Positions 66 to 22,300 of a stretch of 64,000 bases of DNA are shown here, one piece after another (the first letter of the stretch is position 1; the number at the start of each line of letters is the position of its first letter). The translations under genes and the position numbers were made by a program. Below the pieces are notes generated by a model. It saw only the letters and a list, made by a program, of their open reading frames with translations. It made no database searches and was not told the DNA's origin. The stretch is from Escherichia phage warpig: sequence record MN850637.1; one strand, given 5' to 3'.

Positions 66-106
66 GGTGATGTAGGTCTTGATAGGCTTACATCACCTTT
101 TTATTT
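66..106 (+). terminator. Rho-independent terminator-like hairpin (stem GGTGATGTA/TACATCACC) followed by T-run
   Basis: 9-bp inverted repeat at 66-74/89-97 followed by TTTTTATTT. Confidence 0.5.
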
Positions 107-117
107 GGAGTTACATT

Positions 118-453: not shown

Positions 454-656
454 CAATGACAACACTCTTGAAAGCATTGATATCCATACTACATATAGCA
501 GTCTTCTTCTTTGGAGTTAGTGTTATGGTATGGGGTTTTTCAGACCCACAATGGAGTTTCTCATATCATGGTCAGATGGATTTATGGTCATGCTTCAAAC
601 CATTTTTAGGGTTAGTCATAGCATTCAGTGCATTACCAACTAAGGTGAAATTATGA
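441..656 (+). CDS. small membrane protein (hypothetical)
   Basis: ORF track; hydrophobic stretch LISILHIAVFFFGVSVMVWGF; alternative ATG at 456. Confidence 0.35.
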   Translation: MVELTMTTLLKALISILHIAVFFFGVSVMVWGFSDPQWSFSYHGQMDLWSCFKPFLGLVIAFSALPTKVKL

Positions 657-1048
657 TTAAGTTGAGCCAAAAACAGTTAGAGTGGATTAAAGATTATGCC
701 TCAGAGTGTGGCTCTTGTGAAAAGAATCACGTAAGATACTCAACATTCCACACGGTCTTCACATTGTATATCGGCGACAATGTTCTAAGTGATTCTGTAG
801 AAGATGGTGTAGCATTGCCTAATGAATTGCTTGACAAATTAGCTGTAGTCACTGGAACTTGGTCTGAAGAAGATGGTCACGAACTATCTGATGATGTTGT
901 CTTCTACAGTCTTGAAAACATTATGAATCCAGAGTACATTATGCTAATGACTTGCGCACAAGATTGTGTACCATTACAAAACTTCATTAAAGAGCACTGT
1001 GAAGAATTTATTACTAAACAGGTTCCTTGTCAGGTGGTGTTTGAATGA
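653..1048 (+). CDS. hypothetical protein
   Basis: ORF track; ATG with upstream AAGGTGA; tight spacing with neighbours. Confidence 0.45.
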   Translation: MIKLSQKQLEWIKDYASECGSCEKNHVRYSTFHTVFTLYIGDNVLSDSVEDGVALPNELLDKLAVVTGTWSEEDGHELSDDVVFYSLENIMNPEYIMLMTCAQDCVPLQNFIKEHCEEFITKQVPCQVVFE

Positions 1049-1344
1049 GTAAAACAATTCGAAGAAAAGGTTTAAAGAACGTTCATGGACTCTATGAGTG
1101 GAGAAATGAGGTACGTAACAGAGAAAATGCTTCAGATGTCTACTTCCATTCTGATATGATGTCCAGAAAAGGTGGCTCTTACGACTTCACAAGCCAGCCT
1201 TGTAGAGAGATTAAGAAGGCCACTAAACGTCTTACAAGAACACAAATAAGGCAGCTTTCTAAGACATCCTTCTTAGATGAAGACTTTGACATTGATAGCA
1301 AGTCTCCAAAGAAAGCTGCTCAGAACACTTATATGTATTGGTGA
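1045..1344 (+). CDS. hypothetical protein
   Basis: ORF track; overlapping start/stop with upstream gene (operon-like). Confidence 0.4.
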   Translation: MSKTIRRKGLKNVHGLYEWRNEVRNRENASDVYFHSDMMSRKGGSYDFTSQPCREIKKATKRLTRTQIRQLSKTSFLDEDFDIDSKSPKKAAQNTYMYW

Positions 1345-1353
1345 GGTAACTAG

Positions 1354-1839
1354 ATGAATTACATGGATATTCGACCATTTGATACAGCTAATGGTGAAGG
1401 GGTTCGTGTAAGCCTCTTCGTAGCTGGTTGTAAGCATCACTGCGAAGGCTGCTTTAACAGGGAGTCTTGGAAGTTTAATGCTGGTAAAGTGTTCACTTAT
1501 GCAAACCTATATGGAATCATCCAGTTAATGTGTGACGATGCTGTCAGTGGGTTGTCAATACTTGGTGGAGAACCTCTGGATGATAGAAATATTCAAGAGG
1601 TTACCAATATATGTAAACGTATTAAAACTGTTTACCCAGAGAAGTCTATCTGGCTCTGGACAGGTTTTCAGTTACACGAAAAAATTCACCTAGATGTAAT
1701 GAAATATGTTGACGTGGTGATTGATGGTAAGTATGATTCATCTAAACCAACAGTTAAACCGTATCGTGGTTCTGATAACCAAAACCTCTGGAGAAAAGAG
1801 TATGGGTGGCAAGGTGATTGTCAATGGCGAGCCGAGTAA
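1354..1839 (+). CDS. nrdG: anaerobic ribonucleotide reductase activating protein (radical SAM, NrdG-like)
   Basis: 161 aa; N-terminal MNYMDIRPFDTANGEGVRVSLFVAGCKHHCEGCFN carries the CxxxCxxC radical-SAM cluster motif typical of NrdG. Confidence 0.75.
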   Translation: MNYMDIRPFDTANGEGVRVSLFVAGCKHHCEGCFNRESWKFNAGKVFTYANLYGIIQLMCDDAVSGLSILGGEPLDDRNIQEVTNICKRIKTVYPEKSIWLWTGFQLHEKIHLDVMKYVDVVIDGKYDSSKPTVKPYRGSDNQNLWRKEYGWQGDCQWRAE

Positions 1840-1964
1840 GTCTCGTCGTAAAGTAGGTTATCGGTAAAGGCCACTTTACAATGTTCTACAGAACAAACTT
1901 AACCGTTTGGTGTCACTGAAGAAGAACTTAAAACCTTTTGTGAAAAGATTGAGAGAGACATGAA

Positions 1965-2222
1965 ATGGGACTCTGGAATAGTTTTAAATCAAAAGTAAAA
2001 GCAGCACTAGCTTCATTAGGTATGCTCACTGGTGTTGATGTGACTCATCTTATGCAGAACTTTAAGATGGATGAGAAGCTGGCTAATGAGATTATGAAAA
2101 GTATCTATGTAGGCCGTGGCAAAGGTGGTAAGAAACAAGCCCACCGTCCGTCTGGTGCAGCAGCTATTAAACGAGCAGCTAAGAAAGCTCGTAACCGTAA
2201 ACGTAATAAGAAGGCTAAATAA
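1965..2222 (+). CDS. hypothetical protein with highly basic C-terminus
   Basis: ORF track; Lys/Arg-rich tail KKARNRKRNKKAK. Confidence 0.4.
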   Translation: MGLWNSFKSKVKAALASLGMLTGVDVTHLMQNFKMDEKLANEIMKSIYVGRGKGGKKQAHRPSGAAAIKRAAKKARNRKRNKKAK

Positions 2223-2224
2223 TC

Positions 2225-2545
2225 ATGAGCAAAGTTTATAACACTCGCAAATTACAGATTTTCGTACTGTGCCAGTTTATGGCTAAAGAGTATAACTTCT
2301 ACTATTGTGGTACAGGTTTTATTAGCGATGATGATGGCTCATACCTCCCATTCAAAGAAGCTGTGAAGCTCTTTAATGAAGAGAAAAGCTCTAAGAAAGA
2401 TATTGAAAAGGTTAAGCTAACCTACAGCAAGAAAGATAAGAAGATTATCTGCCTAGATAACTTTGTAAAAGTTACTGGGGAAGCAAAAGAGTTTATGGAT
2501 GAGAGTGAGATTTCATTCACAAGCATCTTGAAAGTAGCTCAGTAA
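2225..2545 (+). CDS. hypothetical protein
   Basis: ORF track; followed by hairpin plus T-run at about 2558-2586. Confidence 0.4.
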   Translation: MSKVYNTRKLQIFVLCQFMAKEYNFYYCGTGFISDDDGSYLPFKEAVKLFNEEKSSKKDIEKVKLTYSKKDKKIICLDNFVKVTGEAKEFMDESEISFTSILKVAQ

Positions 2546-2557
2546 ACAGATACTATA

Positions 2558-2586
2558 GGGGAACTGTAAAGGTTCCCTTTTTATTT
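2558..2586 (+). terminator. Rho-independent terminator
   Basis: GGGAAC..GTTCCC stem followed by TTTTTATTTT. Confidence 0.5.
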
Positions 2587-2596
2587 TGGAGGTAAA

Positions 2597-3112
2597 ATGT
2601 ATCTGTCAAACCTGAAACGTTCGGTTGCAATGTCAGTTCTAAGACTCAGCTTTGATGAGCGTCAAGAGTTTATAGACTCCCACAAATATGACCCTTCAAA
2701 TTCTAATCACATGGTTCTTTGGAATCGTGACAACTTCCGTGAAAGAGCACTTGTCCGTTATTACCCACACTACACAATAGATAACCTGTATGAATGGTGT
2801 GTTGTGAAGAACACCATTGCAACACTGAACAATCTTTGCAGGTATACAGGTAAGCAAACATTTACACTAGGCCACCACAAACCTGTTACAAAAGGTGGTG
2901 AACATCACTGTGCGAACTGGTTTATCCAAACTAAAGCTGATAACCAGAAGCAAGGAGATAGCCTCCTAAGTATCCCTAAGATGACCTATGAAGAGCAAGA
3001 GAAATATATCAAAAATAATATGCCAGATGTGCTTGACAACAACTATACAGATTTGGCAATATCTCTCCTGTTGAAGTTCGAGACAGTTTATAGGGCAACT
3101 TATAATGGCTAA
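2597..3112 (+). CDS. HNH-type endonuclease-like protein (putative homing endonuclease)
   Basis: 171 aa; segment LGHHKPVTKGGEHHCANWFIQTKADNQKQGD resembles the HNH His-His..N..N core. Confidence 0.4.
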   Translation: MYLSNLKRSVAMSVLRLSFDERQEFIDSHKYDPSNSNHMVLWNRDNFRERALVRYYPHYTIDNLYEWCVVKNTIATLNNLCRYTGKQTFTLGHHKPVTKGGEHHCANWFIQTKADNQKQGDSLLSIPKMTYEEQEKYIKNNMPDVLDNNYTDLAISLLLKFETVYRATYNG

Positions 3113-3383
3113 AGAAAAGTGGGGGATTTTACCATTAGTCAGTGAAGGAGGTAATGGTTGTGAGATGTACATGATACGTGGTCATGTTCCAGAACCAATT
3201 GCACTTGAGATGGTAAACAACTTTACAGATGGTTCTTACAAAGACTTAGGAGAGCCAACTATAAAGCAGCAATGGGTAAAGCCTGTCCCAGACAGCACAG
3301 GTAACTGTAGTGTACTTTACCACGTTGTAGACCCTGTAAAATGCAAATCTGCAATGGCAGTAACAAACGTAACTTTTGATTGA
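3105..3383 (+). CDS. hypothetical protein
   Basis: ORF track; translationally coupled to flanking genes. Confidence 0.4.
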   Translation: MAKEKWGILPLVSEGGNGCEMYMIRGHVPEPIALEMVNNFTDGSYKDLGEPTIKQQWVKPVPDSTGNCSVLYHVVDPVKCKSAMAVTNVTFD

Positions 3384-4276
3384 GAGAGAAAACTATGAAA
3401 ACATCTATCCGTGTCACAATTCATTCACCGACTAAAGGAACTCATGAAGAAGAGTTTAACATCATCCAATTCCCTTCTGGTGAGATTGGTGGCCACTTTT
3501 CACAAGAGCTTGTTGATTTTACTGCTTATGCAGCATCATCTATTAACAATGTGGTTATGATTGTAAAGGGTTATGACAAAGACACACTGTTTGCTGTGGC
3601 ACTGGCTAAAGAAGCAATTGACGATTTAGTTCCTCATGATTATGCCCTGAAGACTGTCATTTTTTACTACTTGCCAAATGCACGATACGACCGTCACATG
3701 TTTAAAGGCGACGCAGCAGCTTTAAAGGTTTTTGCTAAACAGGTAAATGCAATGGGATTTGGTGCAGTCTGTGCAGTTGACCCTCACAGTTATGTACCAG
3801 ATAACCTGTTTAACTGCTTCCAAAGTATTCCTCAAAAGGAGATTGCAGTCCACTATGCAAATGACCCTCTAATTGATTACTTAGTAGCCCCAGATGCAGG
3901 TGCTTCTAAGAAGATTGCAGAGACTGCTAAAGAGGCGGATAAACCATATATCACAATGTCTAAGGTGCGAAATCTTAAGACTGGAGAAATCACTGGTATG
4001 CGAATCCTTGACGATGTTGATTTGACCGATAAAACCGTCATGATTCTTGATGATATCTGTGATGGTGGTCGAACCTTCGTAGAGGCAGCTAAACACCTAC
4101 GTGAAGCAGGTGCAAAACGTGTTGAGCTTTATGTAACACATGGTATCTTCTCTAAAGGTGTTGAAAACCTTCTTGACAACGGTATCGACCATATTTACAC
4201 TACAAACTCTTTAGGCGAAGCTAAAGACCGTGGCTTAACACATTATGGTCAAGTTACTGTAGCAAACCTTGATTGA
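3380..4276 (+). CDS. ribose-phosphate pyrophosphokinase (PRPP synthetase)-family protein; candidate ADP-ribose pyrophosphokinase of an NAD+ reconstitution pathway
   Basis: 298 aa; phosphoribosyltransferase-type PRPP-binding loop VMILDDICDGGRTF; directly upstream of a NAMPT-like gene. Confidence 0.75.
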   Translation: MREKTMKTSIRVTIHSPTKGTHEEEFNIIQFPSGEIGGHFSQELVDFTAYAASSINNVVMIVKGYDKDTLFAVALAKEAIDDLVPHDYALKTVIFYYLPNARYDRHMFKGDAAALKVFAKQVNAMGFGAVCAVDPHSYVPDNLFNCFQSIPQKEIAVHYANDPLIDYLVAPDAGASKKIAETAKEADKPYITMSKVRNLKTGEITGMRILDDVDLTDKTVMILDDICDGGRTFVEAAKHLREAGAKRVELYVTHGIFSKGVENLLDNGIDHIYTTNSLGEAKDRGLTHYGQVTVANLD

Positions 4277-4285
4277 AACTTTATA

Positions 4286-4308
4286 GGGGCTTGAAAGCCC
4301 CATTTTGA
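4286..4308 (+). terminator. hairpin GGGGCT/AGCCCC with short T-run
   Basis: inverted repeat between the two NAD-pathway genes; weak T tract, so may be attenuating only. Confidence 0.35.
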
Positions 4309-4321
4309 GAGAGATTAAAAG

Positions 4322-6103
4322 ATGACTAAATCACTTTATGCAGTACCAGCAGGTTTAAACGCAGATGCTTACAAGTCTGGTCATGTTTACCAGTATCCTA
4401 GTGCAACAGAGTACTTGATGTTCAACCTGACACCACGTAGTGACAAATGGTTTAACAGCCCCTTAGCAATTGATGGTGTAGTGGCTTTTGGTATTCAACG
4501 TTTCGTTAAAGATTACTTGATAGACCACTGGAACGCCACTTTCTTTGAACGTGATAAAAAAGAAGCAATTGACGAAATCTTAGAAGTCATGAATGGTGTT
4601 TTGGGTAAAGATGCTATCGGTCGAGAGCATTGGGAAGCACTTCACGACTTAGGCTATCTACCAGTTGAAGTATACGCTGTAGAAGAAGGTACAGTTGTTC
4701 CGATGCGTGTCCCAATGATTGTCTTTCAGAACACTGTTTCAGGTTTCCATTGGGTAGCAGGGTATCTGGAAGATGCTTTCTCTGCTGAGATTTGGAAGGC
4801 TTGTACCATTGCAACTATTGCATTGCACTACAAACGTATCTGTAAGAAGTGGGCTGACCTTACTTGTGACAATGACTTACATTTACCTTACCAGTGCCAT
4901 GACTTTGCTATGCGTGGTATGTCAGGCTTTACTGATGACGCATTTAACGCTGTAGGCCACTTAACCAGCTTTAAAGGGACTGATAGCTTCCCTGCTGTAT
5001 ATACAGCTAAACGCATCTACGGACAGTCTTACCCAGTCTCTGATATTGGTGGTTCTGTACCAGCCACTGAACACTCTGTAATGTGTGCAAACATTGCTTG
5101 GGAAGGTGGTAATGAATTGATTGAAGAGGAAAGACGCTTTAAAGGTGAATTACAAACCTTCCGTCGCTTCTTAACAGAAACTTACCCAACTGGTATTGCA
5201 AGTATTGTTTCAGATACTTATAACTTCTGGAGAACTGTGTCAGAAATCTTACCAGCACTTCGTAAAGAGATTATGGAACGTGACGGTAAACTGGTAATTC
5301 GTCCTGACTCTGGAGACCCTGTACATATTGTCACAGGTTATAAAGCAATCCACTTAGAGTGTGCTAAAAAGGCTTATTACGAGCACCTAAGCAAGCTGGA
5401 AGCCAGTGACACAATGCTGAATGCTGTTCTGAACATGAAGCTTGAAAACATCAGCTATGGTATTGCTGGATGGCTACTGTCAGAAGGCTACGAAATGGTT
5501 GTTGACCGAGAAGACTTTGAAGTTGCTGATACAGTGATGTTGAAAAATACTTATATGGTTGGCTCTGCAAACGTTGTAACACGTCCTGTAGCAGAGATTG
5601 ATGGAGCTATTAAGACCCTGTACAACATCTTCGGAGGGACTATTAACTCTAAAGGGTTTAAGGTACTGGATGAGCACATCGGCCTTATCTATGGTGACTC
5701 TATCACACTGGAACGTGCAAACGAAATCCTGAAGCGTCTGTATGAAATGGGTTTTGCAAGCTCTAACGTAGTGTTTGGCGTAGGCTCTTACACTTACCAG
5801 TACATGACTCGTGACACCTTTGCATTTGCTGTTAAAGCAACTCTTGCAAGCATTGGTGGTAAAGAGATTATGCTTGCAAAAGACCCTAAAACAGATAGTG
5901 GTGTTAAGAAGTCTGCTTTTGGTGGTGTAGCACCTATGTGGGATGGTGATAAGTTGAAAGCTGTAGATGGCTATGGATTCCAGAGCTTTGCAGATGCACT
6001 TGAACATCCAGCTTGTGCTTTACGTTTAGTCTTTAGTGACTCTGAGCAGTACGGTTACACATCTCTTGGTGATATTCGAAATAATATTGACAAGCAGCTT
6101 TAA
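4322..6103 (+). CDS. nadV: nicotinamide phosphoribosyltransferase (NAMPT/NadV)-family protein
   Basis: 593 aa; NAPRTase-family signature LVIRPDSGDPV; N-terminal YKSGHVYQYP. Confidence 0.8.
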   Translation: MTKSLYAVPAGLNADAYKSGHVYQYPSATEYLMFNLTPRSDKWFNSPLAIDGVVAFGIQRFVKDYLIDHWNATFFERDKKEAIDEILEVMNGVLGKDAIGREHWEALHDLGYLPVEVYAVEEGTVVPMRVPMIVFQNTVSGFHWVAGYLEDAFSAEIWKACTIATIALHYKRICKKWADLTCDNDLHLPYQCHDFAMRGMSGFTDDAFNAVGHLTSFKGTDSFPAVYTAKRIYGQSYPVSDIGGSVPATEHSVMCANIAWEGGNELIEEERRFKGELQTFRRFLTETYPTGIASIVSDTYNFWRTVSEILPALRKEIMERDGKLVIRPDSGDPVHIVTGYKAIHLECAKKAYYEHLSKLEASDTMLNAVLNMKLENISYGIAGWLLSEGYEMVVDREDFEVADTVMLKNTYMVGSANVVTRPVAEIDGAIKTLYNIFGGTINSKGFKVLDEHIGLIYGDSITLERANEILKRLYEMGFASSNVVFGVGSYTYQYMTRDTFAFAVKATLASIGGKEIMLAKDPKTDSGVKKSAFGGVAPMWDGDKLKAVDGYGFQSFADALEHPACALRLVFSDSEQYGYTSLGDIRNNIDKQL

Positions 6104-6118
6104 AAGTATATGATAAGA

Positions 6119-6143
6119 GGCTCCTACGGGAGCCTTTTTAATT
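6119..6143 (+). terminator. Rho-independent terminator
   Basis: GGCTCC-TACG-GGAGCC followed by TTTTTAATTT. Confidence 0.6.
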
Positions 6144-6156
6144 TCTGGAGAAGACT

Positions 6157-6492
6157 ATGAAAATCAAAGAAATGAACATCAATATTGTCTTAGAAGAACG
6201 TTGGGAGAACATCAAGAAGCCTGAAGATGGTAAGAAGTTCCTTAACAAAATTTTAGTAGCAGCTAAAGAAGAACTGACTGGCAAGATTGCAGCAGCAATC
6301 ACAATAAAAGTCTGTGTAAAAGGTCTTCCAGACAACCACCAATTTGCGCTTGACGAGTTTAAAGAAAGCTTCTACAATCCAAACAAACAGATGCTTGAAA
6401 GTAACTTTGCAGTATCTACAAGTATCGTCCATGACAGAAGCTTTATCCTTTACAAAAATATGAGAGGTGAGTCATGCAAGCATATTGGATAG
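6157..6492 (+). CDS. hypothetical protein
   Basis: ORF track; ATG preceded by GGAGAAG. Confidence 0.45.
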   Translation: MKIKEMNINIVLEERWENIKKPEDGKKFLNKILVAAKEELTGKIAAAITIKVCVKGLPDNHQFALDEFKESFYNPNKQMLESNFAVSTSIVHDRSFILYKNMRGESCKHIG

Positions 6493-6650
6493 AAATTTTA
6501 CTGTCACTTGGTAGTGTAGCAGTTTTTGTTTACCTTCTTTGCAAGTACTATGCAGAGTACAAGAAGTGTGATTACTGCAACGGGGAAGGGTACACAAGAG
6601 CAGGTTGTTGCCCTATTTGTGGTGGTTCTGGTAAAATGTTTAATAAGTAA
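6474..6650 (+). CDS. small membrane-anchored zinc-ribbon peptide (58 aa, two CxxCxGxG motifs)
   Basis: Not in the >=60 aa ORF track; ATG at 6474 preceded by GAGGTGA; translation MQAYWIEILLSLGSVAVFVYLLCKYYAEYKKCDYCNGEGYTRAGCCPICGGSGKMFNK. Confidence 0.4.
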   Translation: MQAYWIEILLSLGSVAVFVYLLCKYYAEYKKCDYCNGEGYTRAGCCPICGGSGKMFNK

Positions 6651-6678
6651 TTTAACAGTAAACTAAGAGGAAAGTATT

Positions 6679-9045
6679 ATGCGCATGGTAAACGACCACG
6701 CAGAAGTGATTAAGAGTTCAACTTCTTTGGAGACATCTCAAGCACAGATTACAATGACACCTGAAATGTTCAGCCTTTTGAGTTCAGGTGTATACACATT
6801 CAAAGAAAGGGCAGTGATTCGTGAACTGTCATGTAACGCAGTAGATGCTCAAAAAGAAGCTGGAAAAGAGAACATCCCATTCCATGTGCATTTACCTACT
6901 CGATTTGAGCCTTACTTTGAAGTCCGTGACTTTGGAACTGGTTTAACCCATGACAAAGTAATGAGTTTGTATCTGAACTATGGGGCTTCTACGAAGAATG
7001 ACTCCAATGATTACATTGGTGCAATGGGTATCGGCTCAAAATCACCATTTGCAATTGCTCAGTCATTCACAGTATCTAGCTATGTTGATGGTGTTGTTAA
7101 TAAGTACTCTGTTTACCTTGAGAATGGTATCCCTCAAGTAACTAAGCTTACTACCAACCCAACAAATGAACCCAATGGTTTAGCTGTACGTGTAGCAGTT
7201 GCTGACCATCGTATTTCAAAGTTCTTTGAAGAGGCTGGTCACGTATACTCATACTTTGCTGTAAAACCAGAAAGTAACATTGTATATGATGATGTATTAG
7301 CAGATATGAATGTCATTGCCCGTGAAGATGGTGTTTATGATGCTATGATTCATAAGCAAAGCTGGCGTTCTAGTGGTAACAGGACAGAGTTTAATGTGGT
7401 GATGGGTAATATTGCCTATCCAGTGAACATGGAAGCATTACTTGGTGATGATTTCTTCAAAGTCTTGCCAGAGTTTTTCCGTAGGAGCGTAGACCTTGTA
7501 AACATCTACATGCCTATTGGTTCAGTTGCTATAGCAGCTTCTCGTGAAGCCTTGCAGATGAATGATACGACAAAAAATGTTATCATTGAGGCAACTAAAA
7601 AGATAACTGAAGCAATTACAAAGGATGTTATCAAGAAAGTTAATAGCCAACCTACACTCATGGATGCTGCACAGGCTTATGCTGAGTTACGTTTGAACTC
7701 ACGAGAGATGTTTAATGCTGTGTGTCCAAAGCTAGAGTGGGGAGGCGTTAAGCTTGATTCTCTGGAAGAAGAATTACTAAACATTCGTCGTGGGATTATC
7801 TACGCAGAAGACGGCTCAGTCATTTATGAACGTGACGGTAAAGGTAATATCAAGGTTGATAGGAACGGGAACAATATCCCTAAAGTGGATTATCTTTATA
7901 ATCCAGTTGCTTATGTCAAGTTCAACTCTTTAGAGAGTAAGATTCGTGCAGCAGCACTTTCCTACACTCAAGAGGCAAGTATGTTCAATATCTTTGGTGC
8001 AATGCGTAAAAGCCAAATTGAACAGTTTTTGTTCGTGATTAATGACCGTCGTAATAAAAATGGCACTGAGAAGACTGTAGGCCGCAATCAGATTCTGCGT
8101 GGTGCATGTCGAGACTACGCTAGCGAGTCAAGCCTGTTCCACAGATACAATGGTATTGTGTTTGTATTCTCGACTGAAAAAGAGTTAGATGATTTAATCA
8201 ATCTACACAAGCTTGATAAAAGTTTGTTAAAGATTGTGAAGATGTCTGATAAGGAACACCATTATCAGCGTAAAGAAGCTGTGAGGGGTGTTGTAAAACT
8301 CTGGAAAGCTGTTCCATCAGAAACTAAAGCTTCATACACAGAGGTGTCAGAAGACCTAGATACAATTGAAGAACCCCAGCTTTATATCAAGGCAGTAGGC
8401 GACACAGTTGATGGTGAATGTTTTTGCTCATCCCCAGAAGATGTAGCTAAAACAATTGCTAATGTTATAGGAAAAACAGTCTATGTTTTCCGAAAAGCAA
8501 ATTGGAAAAAGATACCAGAAGACTGGATTGAAGTAGATGAGAAGCTATTGAATGACAGCTTAACTGATGTTCACTGGATTAATCATAACAGGTATATGAC
8601 ACGTATCTATATGAATGGTGTCCTTGACCTTACAAGTAGTTGGATTATTGCCAGAAACTTTACGTTTAATAACAAGAAGATTTCTCGCGGGTATTGCTAT
8701 TCACGAGATACAAACAAAACCATCTTCTTAGAAGGTAATGAGAATGCTGTTGAGGCAATGTTTGGTAAGATTCAGTATGTGGCTGCACCGTTTGCATACA
8801 CTTACACTATCAGTGTTCTTCAGGATTTGAAGTCATGCCTTGACAATGATACAAGACTGTACAAAAAGATTAAGAAAGCGGGTGACCGCATGGTTATCAA
8901 ACTGACAAACTATCTTTCAAAAAGAAAACAAGAAAACTTCTTGCTTTCTCATTTAGATTGGAATAAAGTGTCACCCATCGAAGTGAGTAAGTTCTTAGGT
9001 TTTGATGTGAAGTGTGTTCCAGAAGGAACTACAATTTACGATTAA
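6679..9045 (+). CDS. rIIA: rIIA-like protein (GHKL/histidine-kinase-type ATPase N-terminal domain)
   Basis: 788 aa; N-terminal ATPase-like region (RELSCNAVDA...VRDFGTGLTHD...GAMGIGSKSPF); immediately followed by an rIIB homologue. Confidence 0.75.
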   Translation: MRMVNDHAEVIKSSTSLETSQAQITMTPEMFSLLSSGVYTFKERAVIRELSCNAVDAQKEAGKENIPFHVHLPTRFEPYFEVRDFGTGLTHDKVMSLYLNYGASTKNDSNDYIGAMGIGSKSPFAIAQSFTVSSYVDGVVNKYSVYLENGIPQVTKLTTNPTNEPNGLAVRVAVADHRISKFFEEAGHVYSYFAVKPESNIVYDDVLADMNVIAREDGVYDAMIHKQSWRSSGNRTEFNVVMGNIAYPVNMEALLGDDFFKVLPEFFRRSVDLVNIYMPIGSVAIAASREALQMNDTTKNVIIEATKKITEAITKDVIKKVNSQPTLMDAAQAYAELRLNSREMFNAVCPKLEWGGVKLDSLEEELLNIRRGIIYAEDGSVIYERDGKGNIKVDRNGNNIPKVDYLYNPVAYVKFNSLESKIRAAALSYTQEASMFNIFGAMRKSQIEQFLFVINDRRNKNGTEKTVGRNQILRGACRDYASESSLFHRYNGIVFVFSTEKELDDLINLHKLDKSLLKIVKMSDKEHHYQRKEAVRGVVKLWKAVPSETKASYTEVSEDLDTIEEPQLYIKAVGDTVDGECFCSSPEDVAKTIANVIGKTVYVFRKANWKKIPEDWIEVDEKLLNDSLTDVHWINHNRYMTRIYMNGVLDLTSSWIIARNFTFNNKKISRGYCYSRDTNKTIFLEGNENAVEAMFGKIQYVAAPFAYTYTISVLQDLKSCLDNDTRLYKKIKKAGDRMVIKLTNYLSKRKQENFLLSHLDWNKVSPIEVSKFLGFDVKCVPEGTTIYD

Positions 9046-10250: not shown

Positions 10251-10276
10251 AGGCTGCTTCGGCGGCCTTTTTTATT
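10251..10276 (+). terminator. Rho-independent terminator
   Basis: AGGCTGC-TTCG-GCGGCCT stem followed by TTTTTTATTT. Confidence 0.6.
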
Positions 10277-10334
10277 TGTATTTTGTGCAGAGTGCTGTAT
10301 AATTGTTGTCACGATAAACTAAACAGGAGAACCA

Positions 10335-12862: not shown

Positions 12863-13189
12863 ATGCAGATTAATGGAAGAGACTTTGTAGCCGTTTACTA
12901 CGAGAAAGATAAAGAAGTTGGAGTAGCACAAGTATCTTATGGTAATGGTAAGTGGCTATATGGAACAATCGCAGTAGTCGGAACAAGAAGTGATACAAAA
13001 ACTTTTAAAGATTGTGTTGACCTTCTTGAAGAATCCATCCACAATCATTGGTGTCTGATATGGATGACTGACAACGAAGTGATAGAACGCTTCAAAAAGA
13101 TTGACATCAACATTGATAGCATTGAGCATGTTGATTTGTATGAGCTAACTGAGAAGGTAAACTATGAAAGTAATACTAGCCAGAGATAA
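12863..13189 (+). CDS. hypothetical protein
   Basis: ORF track. Confidence 0.4.
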   Translation: MQINGRDFVAVYYEKDKEVGVAQVSYGNGKWLYGTIAVVGTRSDTKTFKDCVDLLEESIHNHWCLIWMTDNEVIERFKKIDINIDSIEHVDLYELTEKVNYESNTSQR

Positions 13190-13391
13190 AAAGACACGGA
13201 AACTTATCAGGTCAGCAGTGTTCATTGGACGAAATGAAGTCATACCATTTACAGCAAATGATGTGATAGCTTACCGGAAGAACTTAGTATTCGCTGACTG
13301 TTTACGTGGATTCATCTCTGAACCATTGGAAGACTTTAAAAGTCGTTGTGGTAAAGGCATCATCATTCAAGAGGCAATTATTCATGGCTGA
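13164..13391 (+). CDS. hypothetical protein
   Basis: ORF track. Confidence 0.35.
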   Translation: MKVILARDKKTRKLIRSAVFIGRNEVIPFTANDVIAYRKNLVFADCLRGFISEPLEDFKSRCGKGIIIQEAIIHG

Positions 13392-13584
13392 CTTCTGCAA
13401 AGATTGTGCTATCGAAATGTTCGGACGTGATACAGGTGACTTAAAAGGTCTTATCACTGAAGATGACTTTAAGGCTGGCTATGCAATGCCAGTAATCTGT
13501 GAAGGTTGTGGATGTATCTGGGTAGACCACGAAGGACAGCGTGTAAAACCTTCAGAAGATAAAGAATCTTGGGAGAGATGCTAA
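13384..13584 (+). CDS. small Cys-rich (zinc-ribbon-like) protein
   Basis: ATG at 13384 within track ORF 13306..13584; MADFCKDC...CEGCGC. Confidence 0.35.
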   Translation: MADFCKDCAIEMFGRDTGDLKGLITEDDFKAGYAMPVICEGCGCIWVDHEGQRVKPSEDKESWERC

Positions 13585-14370
13585 ATGGGTATTGTAAAAA
13601 TCATCAATGGGGATATCTTCTCCGCATTTGATAAAGGTAAGTTTGATATTATTGGTCACGGTTGCAACTGTATGAACTTAATGGGTGCAGGTATCGCTGA
13701 CAAGATTTCTAAACTTTACCCAAAAGCATATGAGACCGATACAGAAGTTTATTTGTATGCAGGTGGCATAGGCCACAAACCCTGTGAAAATTTACTAGGT
13801 AATTTCTCTGTAGCACGTTTAAAACAAGGCCGTATAGCTAACCTTTACACTCAGCTTAAGACTGGTAAAGATGCCCGATACAGTGCTTTAGAGTCATCTT
13901 TGAAACAGCTTAACAGATACTGTGAAGTCAATCAGTTGAAGAAAGTCGGGTTACCTATGATTGGTGCAGGTATCGGTGGGCTAGACGCTCAAGCCGTCAC
14001 AGTTATCATTAATCAGGTGATGAAGAGTGTAGATGTGTATCTGTATGTCTATGAAGGAGAGATGTACCACAAGTTACGCTCAGGTTGGAAGAACTACTGT
14101 GAACCAGAATACTTTGCAGGTGTAGTAACGTTCACAGACAATACAGTTACCCTCTTCAGACGAAGAAAAGGTAAGATACATCAAAGTAACCCTCCGGTTG
14201 AAAAGATGTCTCTAAGTAACGCTCTAGTTACCCACCTGTCGAAGAGCAATCACAGGATTGCAGTAACATTTGGTAGTGATGCAGACACTTATATCTATGC
14301 AAGAACTGATGAGGGTATCGAGACAGTTTTCTCTTCGCCAGAAGTTACCTTCTTAGACGCAAAGAACTAA
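13585..14370 (+). CDS. macro-domain protein (ADP-ribose-binding/hydrolase fold) with extra C-terminal domain
   Basis: 261 aa; macro motifs GDIFSAFDKGKFDIIGHGCNCMNLMGAGIA and LPMIGAGIGGL. Confidence 0.65.
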   Translation: MGIVKIINGDIFSAFDKGKFDIIGHGCNCMNLMGAGIADKISKLYPKAYETDTEVYLYAGGIGHKPCENLLGNFSVARLKQGRIANLYTQLKTGKDARYSALESSLKQLNRYCEVNQLKKVGLPMIGAGIGGLDAQAVTVIINQVMKSVDVYLYVYEGEMYHKLRSGWKNYCEPEYFAGVVTFTDNTVTLFRRRKGKIHQSNPPVEKMSLSNALVTHLSKSNHRIAVTFGSDADTYIYARTDEGIETVFSSPEVTFLDAKN

Positions 14371-14440
14371 GAAACTCTGTAGAGTATTCACAATAAACTA
14401 AGCCTTTCTTATCTGGTAAATTTTTCAGGTAAGGAGGGCT

Positions 14441-14640
14441 TTTTCATTTCAGAATTGTGCAGGTATATTTCTATAGAGAAATCTGTAGAGGAAATTTTGA
14501 ACTCCAAAGAGAAAATTCATTTTCAAACTGTGCAGGTAATCTCCAAAGGGTTTTTTCATTTTCAAAACGTGCAGAGAAAAATCAGGTCGGGCAAGAAAAA
14601 TCATTTTAGAATTGTGCAGGTAGGTGGGTGCAGGTGGGGA
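14441..14640 (+). repeat. 4-5 degenerate direct repeats of TTTTCAtTTCAgAAtTGTGCAGGTA-like units
   Basis: Read directly: copies near 14441, 14514, 14553, 14596 and a GTGCAGGT(G)G tail. Confidence 0.5.
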
Positions 14641-14800
14641 TGTCGCCATTTCTCACAAGGCTACCACATCTGGAAATAAAAGTCAACAGAAAAATTTGTA
14701 GCGGATTGAAAAATAATTCTTGATTGTAGTTCTGTTTTGTGGTATTCGCGCGCACCCGTTTCATTACAATTTTTGCAAAAAAATATTTTTAAAATTCCTA

Positions 14801-14879
14801 TTGACTCTTTGAGTATGGTTATCTAATATTTGCATCAGACGGGCAAGCAAGCCCACTTCCTAAACTGGAGAATCTAAAA
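14801..14879 (+). promoter_or_regulatory. sigma70-like promoter TTGACT-N17-TAATAT plus conserved leader CTAAACTGGAGAATCTAAAAATG
   Basis: -35 at 14801-14806, -10 at 14824-14829; leader shared with downstream small genes. Confidence 0.5.
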
Positions 14880-15086
14880 ATGCTTTACAGTCGTGAATTG
14901 ATGGTTACAACTAACGTTAACACAAAGGTAAAACGTTTTTACATGCAAATTTGTGGCGTATGGTCTAGAATATCAGAAGCTGACTATTGCAACTATGTAG
15001 AAACGGCTATAAACTCTAATTGCTACCTTACAAGAAATACAAGAAAGTACATAAGACAGACAGCAATTTACTACTACGATAAATAA
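14880..15086 (+). CDS. small early-region protein (hypothetical)
   Basis: 68 aa; ATG preceded by conserved leader with GGAG. Confidence 0.45.
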   Translation: MLYSRELMVTTNVNTKVKRFYMQICGVWSRISEADYCNYVETAINSNCYLTRNTRKYIRQTAIYYYDK

Positions 15087-15091
15087 AGTAC

Positions 15092-15173
15092 TTTACAAGG
15101 GGCTTATAGTTCGATAGAGTAAGCCCCAGATAAAGAGCTTTGCTAACTAACCTTAAACTAGGAGAATCTGAAA
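15092..15173 (+). promoter_or_regulatory. class-1 cassette: TTTACA-N17-TAGAGT with GGGGCTTA/TAAGCCCC palindrome in spacer, then conserved leader
   Basis: palindrome 15099-15127; leader ends CTAGGAGAATCTGAAAATG. Confidence 0.4.
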
Positions 15174-15554
15174 ATGGCATATCGTGCACCTAAATTCATC
15201 AACAAAGACAACTTTCGCAACGCACTGGAGAAGTCACTTGATGAAAAATTTAACGGTAAATTGATTATTGTTCACGCATTCAATTTTAAGTATGATATTA
15301 ATGGGAATAAAATCAACCATTACACGGCAACCATGATAGATGGTACACTTTCAAGTGAAAAAGCCGTACTGAATGCACTTGCTGGACGCGGTAAAAACCT
15401 GATAAAATGTGATAAGCGACGTTATCAGGGTGGCGCATATGGTTACGATGATGCTGTTTACCATCTTGAAAACATGGGCTATCAAGTAGAAAAAGCTGGA
15501 GTATCACAAATTATCGGGAGTGATGGTTATGTGACAATTTTCAAAATTAACTAA
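15174..15554 (+). CDS. small early-region protein (hypothetical)
   Basis: 126 aa ORF behind class-1 cassette. Confidence 0.5.
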   Translation: MAYRAPKFINKDNFRNALEKSLDEKFNGKLIIVHAFNFKYDINGNKINHYTATMIDGTLSSEKAVLNALAGRGKNLIKCDKRRYQGGAYGYDDAVYHLENMGYQVEKAGVSQIIGSDGYVTIFKIN

Positions 15555-15562
15555 TAAAGTAC

Positions 15563-15643
15563 TTTACAAGGGGCTTATAGTTCGATAGAGTAAGCCCCAG
15601 ATAAAGAGCTTTACCACTAAATCCTAAATTGGAGAACTTAAAA
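15563..15643 (+). promoter_or_regulatory. class-1 cassette (near-identical copy)
   Basis: same palindrome (15570-15598) and leader. Confidence 0.4.
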
Positions 15644-15901
15644 ATGGCTATTATCAAAAACGTTGTAATTACTGCAAAGACTCGTGATGACGCTCGCGTT
15701 ATGGCTAAAAAGTTATGCGGAAAAGTGGTTGACAACGGAAAACAAACTGCTGTAAGGTGGGGCGTGAAAGCTGATAAGCAACTAACCTTAAAACATAATT
15801 CAAACAACCTTTTTAAAGGTGTAAAATCACTCGGTAAAGTGAACGTTTTTACCAAAAAAGGCTATAAAATGCACTTATCACTAACTGGCAATTTAATCTG
15901 A
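15644..15901 (+). CDS. small early-region protein (hypothetical, basic)
   Basis: ATG at 15644 after GGAGAACTTAAAA; track ORF 15629 begins at an in-frame TTG. Confidence 0.45.
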   Translation: MAIIKNVVITAKTRDDARVMAKKLCGKVVDNGKQTAVRWGVKADKQLTLKHNSNNLFKGVKSLGKVNVFTKKGYKMHLSLTGNLI

Positions 15902-15909
15902 TAAAGTAC

Positions 15910-15996
15910 TTTACAAGGGGCTTAAAAGTTGATATCTTAAGCCCCAGATAAAGAGCTTTACCACTAAATCAAGTCCTTAAACTAGGAGATTCAAAA
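15910..15996 (+). promoter_or_regulatory. class-1 cassette (variant palindrome GGGGCTTAA/TTAAGCCCC)
   Basis: palindrome 15917-15945; conserved leader. Confidence 0.4.
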
Positions 15997-16509
15997 ATGA
16001 AAACTGTAGACGCTACCTTTGAAGTTGTAAAAGAAAAATTTTCCATCGTTTATGAGGCTGTTAATTGCTATGAAGCAAGTCATAATCTTGATAATTGGAA
16101 GTTTACAGATGACCATCAAGGCGGTGTGACTGTTAAAAATCCTAACTGTCAGCGTAATGATTTTAAATATGCAATCCCTTTACATTACAGCCTTAAGCAG
16201 CTTTCAAGTGACTATGCAAAACAAGGCCGTGAGAATCCATCGAAAGAGGCTTACACGAGCTTACAGAAAGAACTAGAAAGAGATTTAGAGGCTTCAGAGT
16301 ATAACCTTGCCGCGAAAGTTGTGGATGCAAACGGTAGCACGGTTTTAGAAAGTTTTTATCTTGGTTACGCTTTCGATTGGTGCTATCGTGACGGCGATGA
16401 TTTAGATGACAGGCTAAAAGAGGAAGTGAACAACGCAGACGCAGAATCTGAAGTATTAGAACGCTTGGAAGCATTAAAAGATTCAGTGATGAATATCTTT
16501 AAGGACTAA
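15997..16509 (+). CDS. small acidic early-region protein (hypothetical)
   Basis: 170 aa; conserved leader upstream. Confidence 0.5.
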   Translation: MKTVDATFEVVKEKFSIVYEAVNCYEASHNLDNWKFTDDHQGGVTVKNPNCQRNDFKYAIPLHYSLKQLSSDYAKQGRENPSKEAYTSLQKELERDLEASEYNLAAKVVDANGSTVLESFYLGYAFDWCYRDGDDLDDRLKEEVNNADAESEVLERLEALKDSVMNIFKD

Positions 16510-19310: not shown

Positions 19311-19400
19311 ACAAGCCTGATAAAAGTCTGTAAATTGTCAATCAACGGGGAGGGAATGACCTTCCCCACTAAATGAAGTCCTAAACTGGAGATTCTAAAA
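19308..19400 (+). promoter_or_regulatory. class-2 cassette (TAGACA-N17-TAAATT, UTR hairpin, conserved leader)
   Basis: -10 19331-19336; hairpin GGGGAGGGAATGACCTTCCCC. Confidence 0.45.
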
Positions 19401-19871: not shown

Positions 19872-19962
19872 TTGCAATCAGCTATCAAAACAAGTAAATT
19901 ACTAATCAACGGGAGGGATGACCTCCCCACTAAGTAAAGTCCTTAAACTAGGAGATTCAAAA
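19872..19962 (+). promoter_or_regulatory. class-2 cassette (TTGCAA-N17-TAAATT, UTR hairpin GGGAGGGATGACCTCCCC, leader)
   Basis: -35 19872-19877, -10 19895-19900; extra TTGACA boxes at 19775-19793. Confidence 0.45.
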
Positions 19963-20493
19963 ATGAACAAGTTCAAAGCCATCAATTACATCCGCTCAAA
20001 TAGTGTTATGTCAAAGCCTGTTAAAGACACCTATGAATTCCGTTGTAATGGTGTACACTTTGCAACCATCACCAAATCAGAAAACGGGGCTTATTACATT
20101 CATCGCCGTAATGTTGCAACCGTTGTAGTCTCTCATTTTATGCAAGCTGTAGCAGAGTTATTACCGCTATTCTTAGAGATTTACTTAGATGAGTGTAAAA
20201 ACGTTCACAACCACGTTAAAAACCTTTTAAACAGTTATAAAATGGCTTATGAACGTTCTATCAAGTCCTTAAACAAGTTTTACAACGCACCTGAAAATAC
20301 TGTGTCAATAGCCTATGCTGCAAATGGTGGGATGGTAAACTTATCCAATGTGGAAGAAATCGAACTGCATGACTTACGCCCTGAAGGTTATTCTAAAACC
20401 CTCGGTGAAGGTTTATCATTCAATATCAAGAACTTAGAAAAAACTTTAAAAGATATTGAAAAAGATATTGACGAGACAATCAAAAATCTGTAA
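19963..20493 (+). CDS. early-region protein (hypothetical)
   Basis: ATG at 19963 (MNKFKAINYIRS...); track ORF 19918 starts inside the leader hairpin. Confidence 0.45.
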   Translation: MNKFKAINYIRSNSVMSKPVKDTYEFRCNGVHFATITKSENGAYYIHRRNVATVVVSHFMQAVAELLPLFLEIYLDECKNVHNHVKNLLNSYKMAYERSIKSLNKFYNAPENTVSIAYAANGGMVNLSNVEEIELHDLRPEGYSKTLGEGLSFNIKNLEKTLKDIEKDIDETIKNL

Positions 20494-20558
20494 ATTACTA
20501 ATCAACGGGAGGGATGACCTCCCTACTAAATAAAGTCCTTAAACTAGGAGACTCTAAA
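20468..20558 (+). promoter_or_regulatory. class-2 cassette (TTGACG-N17-TAAATT overlapping upstream stop codon)
   Basis: -35 20468-20473, -10 20491-20496. Confidence 0.45.
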
Positions 20559-20807
20559 ATGGCAACTATCCGCGCAACTGTTAACGAATTTGGCTTCTAC
20601 TCTCTGGATGTTAAATTCGACCTTGTAGGTACTGATAACGCCTTTGAAATGGTGAAAGTTCTTATCAGTCAGACCATCAAAGACTATAATCCTTCAGATG
20701 AGTTCTGGAAAGAAACAAAACAGGAAGTTCTCAAAGAGGGCTATTCATATCACTATTGGGGTGAAAAAATCGTCTCCCTGTACTACGACAAAGAAGGCAC
20801 TAACTAA
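20559..20807 (+). CDS. small early-region protein (hypothetical)
   Basis: ATG at 20559 (MATIRATVNEFG...). Confidence 0.45.
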   Translation: MATIRATVNEFGFYSLDVKFDLVGTDNAFEMVKVLISQTIKDYNPSDEFWKETKQEVLKEGYSYHYWGEKIVSLYYDKEGTN

Positions 20808-20873: not shown

Positions 20874-21289
20874 GTCTTATCAAATCCCTTATACAACCCT
20901 TTCCCTTTCCTTTCCAGAATCTTATCAGACCTTAAAAAGCAATAACTCTATAGTCTACTCTATAGCCTTTTATCAAATCAACTTAAATATAAGCCCATAA
21001 CCCGAAAGGGAAGGGCAACCGTTTAAACGCTCTATAAAGCTCTATAACAGCCTTATCAACCTAACTTAAGGGATTGCATTAACTCACCCTAAAAAGCCCT
21101 TTATAAAGCTTCCCAGAGACTTAAAAGAATCTTATAAGGGTGTAAGCTTTATCATCTCGTTAGCTATCTTGTGAACTACTAAACAAGCCCCTTGATAGTA
21201 ACTGAAAAGTATGTTATAGGGGCTTTAAAGTTACTTTGAAGTAGCTTAAAAGTTACGTAAATGCTAGCCCCCTTAACAATTTCTTAACA

Positions 21290-22300
21290 AACCCTACATA
21301 GTTATGCTTTTAAGGTACTTGTTAGCAACTTGTTAGCACCTTGTTAAATCTCTGTTAAGACCACGTAAAAGCCTTGTAAGAGTCTTTGACATAGCCTTTA
21401 AAGCCCCTGTAAAGCCCTATAAAGAGCTATCTGTACAGTTGGGCTGTAGTTACTAGGAAGAGACTTAAAAGGGGCTATACAGAGCTATACAGAGCTTTTA
21501 AGAGGTATGTTTAAAGAATCACTAAGAAAGGAAAGGGAACGATAAGAAAAAGAGTAGTGACCATGTTAATAGCTTGTTAAAAAGATTAAACACTTGTTAG
21601 AAACTTGTTAATTATCTTAACAAAATAACTCTTAAAAATTAACTTGTTAGCTCTTGTTAGTCATCTGTTAAGATTCTGTAAAGCCTATTCAGCACTTGTT
21701 AATTGGTATTGTTACCAATCCCTAGAAAACTGTTACAGCCTTGTTAGTTCTGTTAAGAATCTGTTAAGACCTCTGAAGTGTTGTTAAGAAGATGTGAGAA
21801 CTGTTAAGAGATTGTTAAGGATATTTTAAAATTTTGCAAAGTACTTGTAAGGGAGCTGTTAAGGGCTACCAAGCAGATATACATCCTCTACAGATATTTT
21901 TGAGTTCCTTCAAAGACCCTAAAAAATGACTTGATAGTCCTATTTTATAAAAATTTTAAAAATCTGAATAATTACCTATACAGTCTTTTAAAAATACAGG
22001 TAGAAACAGGCTTATAAGATACCTTGTTAGTACCATGTTAGACCTTGTGAGATAAGGTCTGTAAAGATATTCCTGTTAAGTTTGTTAAAACAGTCTATAT
22101 AGAGGCTTAGTAATACCTAGTGAACACCTATAGAGAGTCACATAGTTAACCTAGAGATTAAGAGGTGTATAGGAGCTTCTAAGAAGGTGTAGAGAGATGG
22201 TTAAGGTGATTGTATAGACTGTTAAGAAGGCTTGTTAGAGGACTTGTTAGAAGGGTTATACAGAGGGGCTATTAAGACCACTAGATAGTTACTAAGATAC
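21290..22300. repeat. iteron field: about 30 copies of the octamer YTGTTAR(G) plus TATAGAG/TATACAG repeats in an ORF-free region
   Basis: Read directly; examples CTTGTTAG at 21309/21321, CTGTTAAG at 21694/21770/21782, TTGTTAAG at 21802/21832; no ORF >=60 aa on either strand in 20808-22458. Confidence 0.6.

Follow-up and report, generated by a model that had tools for sequence, protein, structure and literature searches.

A conserved array of four direct repeats ahead of the right-terminal early genes of a Felix O1-like phage, probably a binding site set for a DNA-binding protein

Introduction

What are the short direct repeats that precede the small early genes of Escherichia phage warpig, and what might they do? 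Felix O1 and its relatives, which include the BASEL phage Bas63, are widely used in Salmonella and E. coli typing, in biocontrol and in defence-system research, and the repeat array has routinely been mis-annotated in them as one or two small genes. The repeats listed in the Felix O1 genome paper are exact ones of at least 24 bp; it also lists the terminator t13 and does not mention the array (PMC3185647). Our literature searches also found no description of an origin or of the array motif for these phages. We analysed the array in a stretch of 64,000 nucleotides of the phage (record MN850637.1), here called the window, and in the genomes of its relatives.

Results

Anatomy of the gap

The intergenic gap at 14371-14879 (509 bp) runs from the macro-domain gene to the ORF at 14880 that opens the small-gene run. 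We mapped the following features in and beside it.

13585-14370, plus strand: macro-domain gene, T4 Tk.4-like, 'putative phosphatase' (Pfam Macro, E=1.5e-7; ORF list)
14400-14451, plus strand: intrinsic terminator, 17-bp stem and T tail, 't13' of Felix O1 (terminator scan, RNA fold)
14441-14465, plus strand: copy 1 core, TTTTCATTTCAGAATTGTGCAGGTA (PWM 37.2 bits; exact pattern match)
14461-14488, plus strand: degenerate copy, 64% identical to copy 1, including a second short motif, AAATCTGTAGAG (repeat search)
14514-14538, plus strand: copy 2 core, AATTCATTTTCAAACTGTGCAGGTA (PWM 36.1 bits; exact pattern match)
14553-14577, plus strand: copy 3 core, TTTTCATTTTCAAAACGTGCAGAGA (PWM 32.2 bits; exact pattern match)
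14598-14622, plus strand: copy 4 core, AAATCATTTTAGAATTGTGCAGGTA (PWM 34.7 bits; exact pattern match)
14628-14638, plus strand: half copy, GTGCAGGTGGG (repeat search)
14623-14680, no strand: two-form GC-rich segment (alignment, diversity profile, G-run scan)
14681-14735, no strand: block AAAAGTCAAcAGAAAAATTTGTAGcGGATTGAAAAATAATTCTTGA, nearly invariant in the genus and common to Mooglevirus (alignment; diversity about 0)
14762-14801, no strand: AT-rich tract, UP-like region of the promoter (nearest-neighbour stability scan)
14801-14829, plus strand: first strong sigma-70 early promoter, TTGACT-17-TAATAT (promoter scan)

As an earlier note on this DNA had placed it, the array follows the macro gene and precedes the first strong promoter, which heads the right-terminal small-gene module. 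The stem of t13, a terminator tabulated for Felix O1 (Table 2 of PMC3185647), spans 14400-14441, and its T tail runs straight into copy 1. The segment at 14623-14680 is G-rich on the plus strand here and in Bas63, and other Felixounaviruses, Mooglevirus and Kolesnikvirus carry a C-rich counterpart (CCCC..CTCTTACTCCCC). Further on, about 140 bp past copy 4, starts the AT-rich tract, which is at the same time the early promoter's upstream region. From 14762 it forms the least stable 40-bp duplex within 13000-16500 (98.7th percentile of the window).

The motif is present at a single locus

We observed four plus-strand copies of W4-TCATTTY-N6/7-GTGCAGG, at 14441-14465, 14514-14538, 14553-14577 and 14598-14622. 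The 25-bp cores are asymmetric and share one orientation. Four to five copies had been described in the earlier note; four are cores, and the 'fifth' resolves into the half copy GTGCAGGTGGG and the 64%-identical degenerate copy. When the units were aligned, two information-rich blocks, TCATTT and GTGCAG, were seen about one helical turn apart. This alignment gives the core as W4-TCATTTY-N6/7-GTGCAGG(TA), with a purine-rich flank that is conserved less.

The copies are spaced 73, 39 and 45 bp apart, which agrees with the 40-75 bp previously given, and only alternate copies are roughly in phase. Iteron origins have three or more direct repeats of about 12-25 bp in the same orientation, as the four plus-strand cores are; the helically phased regular spacing of such origins was not seen here. 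Tandem Repeats Finder reported no repeat for the array, since the copies are dispersed, separated by unequal spacers and not arranged head-to-tail.

The degenerate pattern TCATTTNNNNNNNGTGCA had exact matches at 14444, 14517, 14556 and 14601, all on the plus strand, and none elsewhere in the 64 kb. With one mismatch allowed, two matches were found elsewhere, which is the chance level (2.29 expected). The 22-mer proposed in the earlier note gave two matches at up to three mismatches, against 0.01 expected. We also searched with a 25-bp weight matrix (PWM) made from 70 distinct copies across relatives. The four copies scored 32-37 bits, the next best site in the window less than 10 bits, and the best site in the 23 kb of genome outside the window (sequence taken from Bas63) 12.4 bits. 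No further copies of the array motif were found by PWM in the genome of about 87 kb, composed of the window and the rest from Bas63. The genome-wide search called for earlier thus places the motif at one locus only.

The array is conserved in related phages

A Megablast search with 13500-15600 returned 234 phage records, with many Felixounavirus genomes among them. The best match was Escherichia phage JohannRWettstein (Bas63, MZ501086), with 97.2% identity over the full length (Bas63 position = window position + 49693). The window accordingly belongs to a Felix O1-like myovirus of the genus Felixounavirus. Through the macro protein we recovered 27 IMG/VR loci, from Felixounavirus, Suspvirus and Mooglevirus, and all 27 carry the copies, at matching distances past the macro gene. 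Most of these loci have four copies and three of them have three; one of the latter (L022) becomes chimeric past copy 3. Four copies each were found in Citrobacter phage Mordin (Mooglevirus) and Erwinia phage phiEa104 (Kolesnikvirus), three in some Felixounavirus variants, and five in a distant metagenome lineage of about 88 kb (L065/L146), whose macro protein is about 48% identical. The spacing in relatives is 75/41/45 in Mooglevirus and 37/37/39 in Kolesnikvirus. In each lineage the gene next to the array on its upstream side is, without exception, the macro gene, annotated as phosphatase or macro in relatives. A strong rightward promoter is kept in Mordin, phiEa104 and L065 about 180-215 bp past the last copy. 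Every lineage keeps one order: the macro gene, then the array and, after about 180-215 bp, the strong rightward promoter.

We compared the units all-versus-all. The identity of the cores to the window units was 0.75 in Mordin, 0.67 in phiEa104 and 0.60 in L065, and that of the flanks was 0.48, 0.41 and 0.24, the last being the random level. For the Erwinia phages, sensitive blastn picked up only the array (query 146-248) out of the 509-bp gap. Within the genus the array is quiet, with a diversity of 0.034 in the cores and hot spots only between copies 3 and 4 and past copy 4. Since the cores are kept while the flanks decay, in the same order in every lineage, these comparisons indicate that selection acts on the core sequence itself. 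The array is the most conserved non-coding element found in the region.

Absence of the motif from relatives had been named beforehand as evidence against a function; it is present in all the related groups examined. It was not found in the more distant macro-gene neighbours L038, L039 and L176. A two-copy and single-copy pattern search of IMG/VR yielded, outside the Ounavirinae and L065/L146, only coding tail-fibre-like repeats and chance singletons. One contig (L050) with two 50-bp repeats containing the motif was set aside as unrelated.

Interruption of the array is tolerated

In the PhageMaP study a barcode cassette was inserted at Cas9 sites throughout Bas63 (bioRxiv 10.1101/2024.10.10.617714). 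The Bas63 scores are given per gene, with none for intergenic DNA, and the array is represented by 'gene 96' alone. This is bas63_0096 (64142-64297), which corresponds to 14449-14604 of the window and lies on copies 1-3; the text of the paper does not discuss it (bioRxiv 10.1101/2024.10.10.617714). Across the four sheets consulted, two of them lab-host and two defence-screen, gene 96 scored +0.24 to +0.98. For comparison, the dispensable macro gene scored +0.6 to +1.1, and DNA polymerase, ligase and capsid about -1 to -3. Under laboratory conditions the phage thus tolerates interruption of the array. Such tolerance speaks against an origin or packaging signal that is essential and the only one of its kind; a regulatory site would be compatible with it, as would a redundant origin.

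Coding, RNA, promoter and neutral explanations

A protein-coding gene at the array (annotated as bas63_0096/0097 and Mordin_126) was rejected: the reading frame, the start codon and the length differ between lineages. ORFs are open on both strands because the motif contains no stop codons. A structured RNA was also rejected, as Rfam gave no match near the gathering score and there was no structure beyond the terminator. The plus strand folds with z=-2.98, which is owed to the terminator hairpin, and the minus strand with z=-0.48 relative to shuffles.

The minus strand might nevertheless be expressed, as the small protein of these annotations or as an antisense RNA of about 300 nt with four A-rich motifs. 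ORFs of 50-105 aa are open across the repeats in every lineage and are annotated in some records. The minus-strand ORF has a weak PHROG match (phrog_15689, E=3e-5, function unknown), phiEa104 has a good leftward promoter (TTGACC-18-TATACT), and the t13 hairpin could stop transcription both ways. However, most spacings (73; 75 and 41; 37 and 37) are not multiples of three, so that the motif changes frame, and the N-terminus varies by lineage as do start and length. A Pfam search of the minus-strand ORF found no family, the RNA folds no better than shuffles, the leftward promoter is absent from the window and Mordin, and the ORF is dispensable. We consider such a product improbable.

The copies could instead serve as promoters. 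They might be a tandem set for sigma-70 or, as the earlier note had suggested, a class that a phage-modified polymerase reads. Copy 1 does give a sigma-70-like TTTTCA-17-TATATT (9/12), and the A/T-rich half of the unit resembles an UP element by our own comparison. A sigma-70 promoter set was rejected, since only copy 1 gives such a match and no -10 is conserved after the copies: the bases past GTGCAG vary among copies and lineages. The earlier note was right that the motif matches neither the sigma-70 consensus nor the downstream cassettes. Its proposal of a promoter class did not hold up, as there is only one locus in the genome of about 87 kb and no conserved -10-like element in any lineage. 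Moreover, the 37-45 bp between copies is below the footprint of RNA polymerase. We therefore regard a promoter function of the copies as very unlikely. In Kolesnikvirus the 37-bp period of the units makes promoter-like sites on the minus strand at the unit junctions, and these junction promoters are not reproduced in the window or in Mordin.

We also looked, by eye and by scan, for sites of DnaA, IHF, CRP, NtrC, sigma-54 and sigma-E, and for marbox, ArcA and Chi sites, and none of them fits all copies. The Kolesnikvirus form of the motif, TGTGCATAG, is one mismatch from a DnaA box, whereas that of Felixounavirus differs from the box at three positions. Sites for DnaA or IHF do not occur beyond chance.

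Could the repeats be neutral leftovers of a tandem duplication of the terminator tail (CTTTTTCATTT...), kept by linkage or by frequent recombination? Copy 1 overlaps the T tail of t13, the terminators t2 and t5 share the tail CTTTTT(C/T)ATTT, and the upstream half of the unit is similar to the 3' arm of the terminator. The GTGCAG half, however, belongs to no terminator. In addition, the core is kept over random flanks across lineages with a macro protein only about 48% identical, and the copy number and order are maintained in four genera. There is, in our estimate, only a slight chance that the array is such a remnant.

A probable binding array: possible replication origin or operator

We infer that the array is probably a set of cis-acting sites for a sequence-specific DNA-binding protein. 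The signature of a binding array is seen in its single locus, in its direct and asymmetric copies, in the half-sites lying one turn apart, and in the conservation of the core over random flanks. Two of the readings offered in the earlier note remain the best supported on these sequence features. A transcription-factor binding array and an origin-associated iteron set are both consistent with the unique locus, the direct orientation, the core being conserved above the flanks, and the adjoining AT-rich tract and strong early promoter.

The binder would probably be a phage-encoded protein conserved across the Ounavirinae. Plasmid iterons and phage P1 C1 operators are read on one face by a monomer with two reading heads. 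The TCATTT and GTGCAG half-sites may likewise be read on one face of the helix by a two-headed monomer, and a nucleoprotein complex built on the four occupied sites would then stand where the right-terminal early-gene module begins.

This complex may mark a replication origin of the T4 oriE type, in which the activity of the early promoter would help origin opening or priming. Such an origin would be one among several initiation routes and hence dispensable. By analogy with T4 oriE, we put forward a dispensable origin as a tentative reading, one that is possible but short of probable. The layout is origin-like: the repeats are followed by the GC-rich tract, then by the AT tract that is least stable within about ±1.7 kb, and then by the early promoter. 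Dispensability fits a non-unique origin, because the PhageMaP scores of gene 96 resemble those of dispensable neighbours; insertion tolerance is, however, equally expected of a non-essential regulatory site. Several further observations stand against an origin. The spacing is irregular, unlike the regular spacing of about 22 bp in classical iterons, and among the neighbouring genes no initiator was recognised with Pfam and PHROGs. The cumulative GC skew has no inflection at 14.5 kb and follows gene orientation. Phages with a T7-type replisome are known, from the case of T7, to start at AT-rich origins that are primed by transcription and lack iterons. A T7-type primase-helicase and a family A polymerase are present in the phage (PMC3185647), and even for T4 oriE the role of the iterons is unproven (PMC3016281). 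A motif-like site that overlaps a promoter elsewhere in the window also points to transcription control:

10272-10290, plus strand: possible solitary motif-like site, TTATTTGTATTTTGTGCAG (1-mismatch pattern match; PWM below 10 bits)

The array may alternatively be an operator array: a phage protein that regulates early transcription would bind its four sites, and perhaps the site at 10272 as well. At the first promoters of the terminal early-gene module, this regulator would act as a switch, a silencer or an insulator. Analogues are known, as phi29 protein p4 binds at four sites and P1 C1 at asymmetric operators. One candidate regulator would be the 99-aa Cro/C1-type HTH protein Bas63 gp35, an essential HTH_3 protein without a known target (Pfam E=4.9e-10; PhageMaP about -1.2). 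The conserved 180-215 bp from the array to the first strong early promoter in all lineages speaks for an operator, and insertion tolerance is typical of fine-tuning elements. The timing of Felix O1 transcription is stated to be unknown (PMC3185647). The site at 10272 directly follows the rIIB terminator and shares bases with the -35 and spacer of a promoter with a TATAAT -10. It is conserved in Mooglevirus, where the Mordin counterpart is TTATTTGAAAAATGTGCAGG, framed by a -35 TTGAAA, a 16-bp spacer and TATAAT. However, the site stays under 10 bits and is missing from Kolesnikvirus; it is a tentative member of the array's system. Furthermore, direct repression across 180 bp would be a long reach, the array would account for only one of roughly 20 early promoters, and Cro/C1-type dimers usually read palindromes, whereas these sites are direct and asymmetric. 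We regard an operator array as rather doubtful, although it should be taken seriously. The two readings fit about equally, and we slightly favour the origin, which is narrowly ahead.

If the origin reading is true, it would aid phage engineering and the interpretation of copy-number data, and if the operator reading is true, it would give a first handle on temporal regulation in the subfamily. The array also provides a short probe of about 190 bp for catching the binding protein, and a defined spot at which to search for an origin or an early-gene switch.

Comparison with known repeat arrays

The array is undescribed. It belongs to a known type of element, the direct-repeat protein-binding arrays in phage control regions, and does not form a new category.

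The repeats of plasmid iterons are asymmetric, with two half-sites one helical turn apart, and lambda ori has four copies. Like the array, R6K gamma, F, P1 and lambda ori have direct sites of about 19-25 bp; these lie beside an easily melted AT-rich tract, to which the tract past copy 4 may correspond. Unlike these plasmid and lambdoid iterons, the array has no adjoining or enclosing initiator gene, its spacing is irregular, and it has no DnaA or IHF sites beyond chance. Its genome also differs from those of the plasmid and lambdoid hosts, being linear, terminally repeated and lytic, with a T7-type replisome. The phi29 p4 sites and P1 C1 operators resemble the array as a few sites in a control region of about 200 bp beside early promoters. 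Their sequences are unrelated to it, however, and the array lies at least 180 bp from the promoter.

T4 oriE has direct-repeat 'iterons' that are conserved in the syntenic regions of relatives; it depends on an early promoter and is one of several origins (PMC3016281). Both oriE and the array consist of short direct repeats in non-coding, syntenic DNA of a virulent myovirus, beside an early host sigma-70 promoter (PMC3016281). In both, the element is individually dispensable and the role of the repeats undemonstrated (PMC3016281). The oriE repeats are 12 nt long and evenly spaced, whereas those of the array are about 25 nt, at 37-75 bp, with no sequence similarity between the two. T4 oriE has RepEA/RepEB, and no such partner was recognised for the array, whose role as an origin is proposed by analogy.

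Genome ends and the terminal early-gene module

The position of the array relative to the genome ends bears on two further explanations. Short direct terminal repeats derived with PhageTerm have been reported for Felix O1-like phages, of 613 bp in Ro111lw and 581 bp in Pr103Blw (PMC6454146, PMC8303462). For E9 and its companion phages direct terminal repeats are reported with the length not given (PMC11737134). We observed that the records of Ro111lw (613 bp) and E9 (580 bp) hold both repeat copies, with the common start GCCCCCTTAACAT... and the common end ...TGTTAAGGGCTACC. These place the physical ends at about 21266 and about 21870 of the window, and the array at a distance of 7.2 kb (8.3%) from the right end. 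The array of phiEa104 is about 8 kb (about 9-10% of the genome) from the homologous TGTTA-rich terminal region.

With its 509 bp the gap is close in size to the reported repeats (581-613 bp), and breaks of several assemblies fall inside or beside it, which could suggest that the array is part of the terminal repeat or a packaging (pac) site. We rejected this, since the mapped repeat (about 21266-21870) is 7 kb away, insertions are tolerated, and the contig breaks fall at differing bases, one of them in a chimeric contig; of all the explanations considered, this one has the least to recommend it. The records of Erwinia phages EAP4 and BoyaciRG1, which start near the array and have end overlaps of 1.2 kb, look like assembly overlaps, and EAP4 is labelled partial. 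The announcement of Fifi318 states that the genome was opened at a PhageTerm terminus. We did not retain it as a terminus marker: the record starts just past the tRNA cluster (its last ~1 kb) and has no TGTTA/TTAACA motifs.

The array might also be the inner boundary of a terminal host-takeover module of about 7-8 kb, with a role like that of the T5 iss in DNA entry, end architecture or membrane anchoring, though we give this little weight. The T5 iss is, at a 7.9% boundary, a conserved non-coding repeat region (bioRxiv 10.1101/866236). Both it and the array are conserved non-coding repeats at the inner edge of the small early genes of the terminal 8% or so, and both are better conserved than the adjoining ORFs (10.1101/866236). 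The stretch from the array to the end (7.2 kb here, about 8 kb in phiEa104) contains only small early genes, with their own strong promoters. However, the iss measures about 1.2-1.6 kb, lies mostly within a 10-kb terminal repeat and overruns it, and has palindromes and paired DnaA boxes (10.1101/866236). In contrast, the array is 180 bp long, outside a terminal repeat of 0.6 kb and without DnaA-box pairs. Neither paired DnaA boxes, the basis of Davison's iss model, nor large inverted repeats were found in the gap. The four one-mismatch DnaA-box matches there are isolated (14384, 14649 and 14771/14772, where a single palindromic site matches on both strands). The array tolerates insertions, unlike the T5 iss, which is regarded as essential, and the 8% match may merely reflect the size of the small-gene module. 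To our knowledge, no report describes DNA transfer in two steps for Felix O1-like phages.

By analogy with T5, the right-terminal 8% or so would be treated apart from the remaining genome, for example by entering or being expressed first, and the array would be the boundary where a host or phage protein arrests or organises the DNA, a partition that we think has a small chance of being real. In L065 the array abuts about 13 phased TTAACA repeats, a motif that fills the Felixounavirus terminal repeat. Since the TGTTA/TTAACA repeats adjoin the array in this lineage, the sequence arrangement suggests that they may belong to the same partition system.

TTAACA repeats beside the array and in the terminal repeat

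We observed that in the distant metagenome lineage L065/L146 the five-copy array is directly followed by about 13 TTAACA repeats, spaced 10-12 bp apart in L065 (600-760, minus strand; IMG/VR 3300045988_063805) and likewise present in L146. A promoter and then a small gene lie 3' of these repeats in L065, and both contigs stop about 1.2 kb past the macro gene.

The word beside the L065 array is the same as the one that fills the Felixounavirus terminal repeat. Judged by homology to the Ro111lw and E9 records, window 21266-21870 corresponds to the direct terminal repeat, and hence to the physical ends of the genome, in Felix O1-like phages. About 22-25 copies of YTGTTAR/CTTAACA are crowded into this segment, often spaced about 11 bp apart, and it is located at the convergent junction between plus- and minus-strand genes. 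A homologous TGTTA-rich region was found in the Erwinia phage phiEa104 (record ~16.8-17.5 kb; L246 ~5800-6700).

Other features of the array gap

The gap also contains three occurrences of another short motif, AAAYYTGTAGMG, and is overlain by two minus-strand ORFs:

14373-14384, AAAYYTGTAGMG, directly 3' of the macro stop codon
14449-14649 (-), ORF over the array gap
14479-14490, AAAYYTGTAGMG, between copies 1 and 2
14606-14764 (-), ORF over the array gap
14692-14703, AAAYYTGTAGMG, within the invariant block

Several GenBank records list the ORFs as genes for hypothetical proteins (bas63_0096, bas63_0097 and Mordin_126); these are most likely annotation artefacts of the stop-free repeat.

The segment 3' of copy 4 (window 14623-14680, and its equivalents in the relatives L015, L024 and L002) has two unrelated forms among close relatives, one G-rich on the plus strand versus one with a C-run tract. 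In the Citrobacter phage Mordin the minus strand of this segment forms a canonical G-quadruplex motif; no such motif was found within the whole 64-kb window.

Assembly breaks were frequent inside or adjoining the gap. Two metagenome contigs (L024 and L025) stop at the identical base of the C-rich tract, one of them continuing into a Nextera adapter, and a third (L032) also ends in or beside the gap. L022 is chimeric 3' of copy 3, from ~4005, and two isolate records terminate at the gap, MK482690 with its end and KC139526 with its start. These breaks could stem from strain mixtures, from the repeats or from a C-run that was poorly covered by reads.

Motif-like sites and promoter cassettes elsewhere

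A solitary motif-like site was located near rIIB, and hairpin-promoter cassettes recur in the small-gene run:

10272-10290, solitary site TTATTTGTATTTTGTGCAG, directly 3' of the rIIB terminator
15085-15141, hairpin-promoter cassette
15563-15591, 19330-19400, 19893-19965 and 20490-20560, examples of further cassettes

The solitary site overlaps a promoter whose -10 is a perfect TATAAT. The site is kept in Mordin (L243 ~3626), and no counterpart was seen in the part of phiEa104 that was examined (L242, record 1-7400). The terminators t2, t5 and t13 have the tail CTTTTT(C/T)ATTT in common.

Each cassette carries the hairpin GGGGCTTA...TAAGCCCC between its -35 (TTTACA) and -10 (TAGAGT). The cassettes correspond to a 57-bp repeat that has been reported in Felix O1, and they are similar to the 'promoter early stem-loops' found in T4-type phages.

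TCATTTTAACATAGTGCAG was also found in two exact direct repeats of about 50 bp in L050 (6254-6321; IMG/VR 3300018080_002802), a 10-kb viral contig unrelated to the window, where it is probably a coincidence. Downstream of these repeats are two ORFs, one of 151 aa whose C-terminus is weakly HeH/SAP-like and one of 543 aa, in what may be a packaging-gene neighbourhood.
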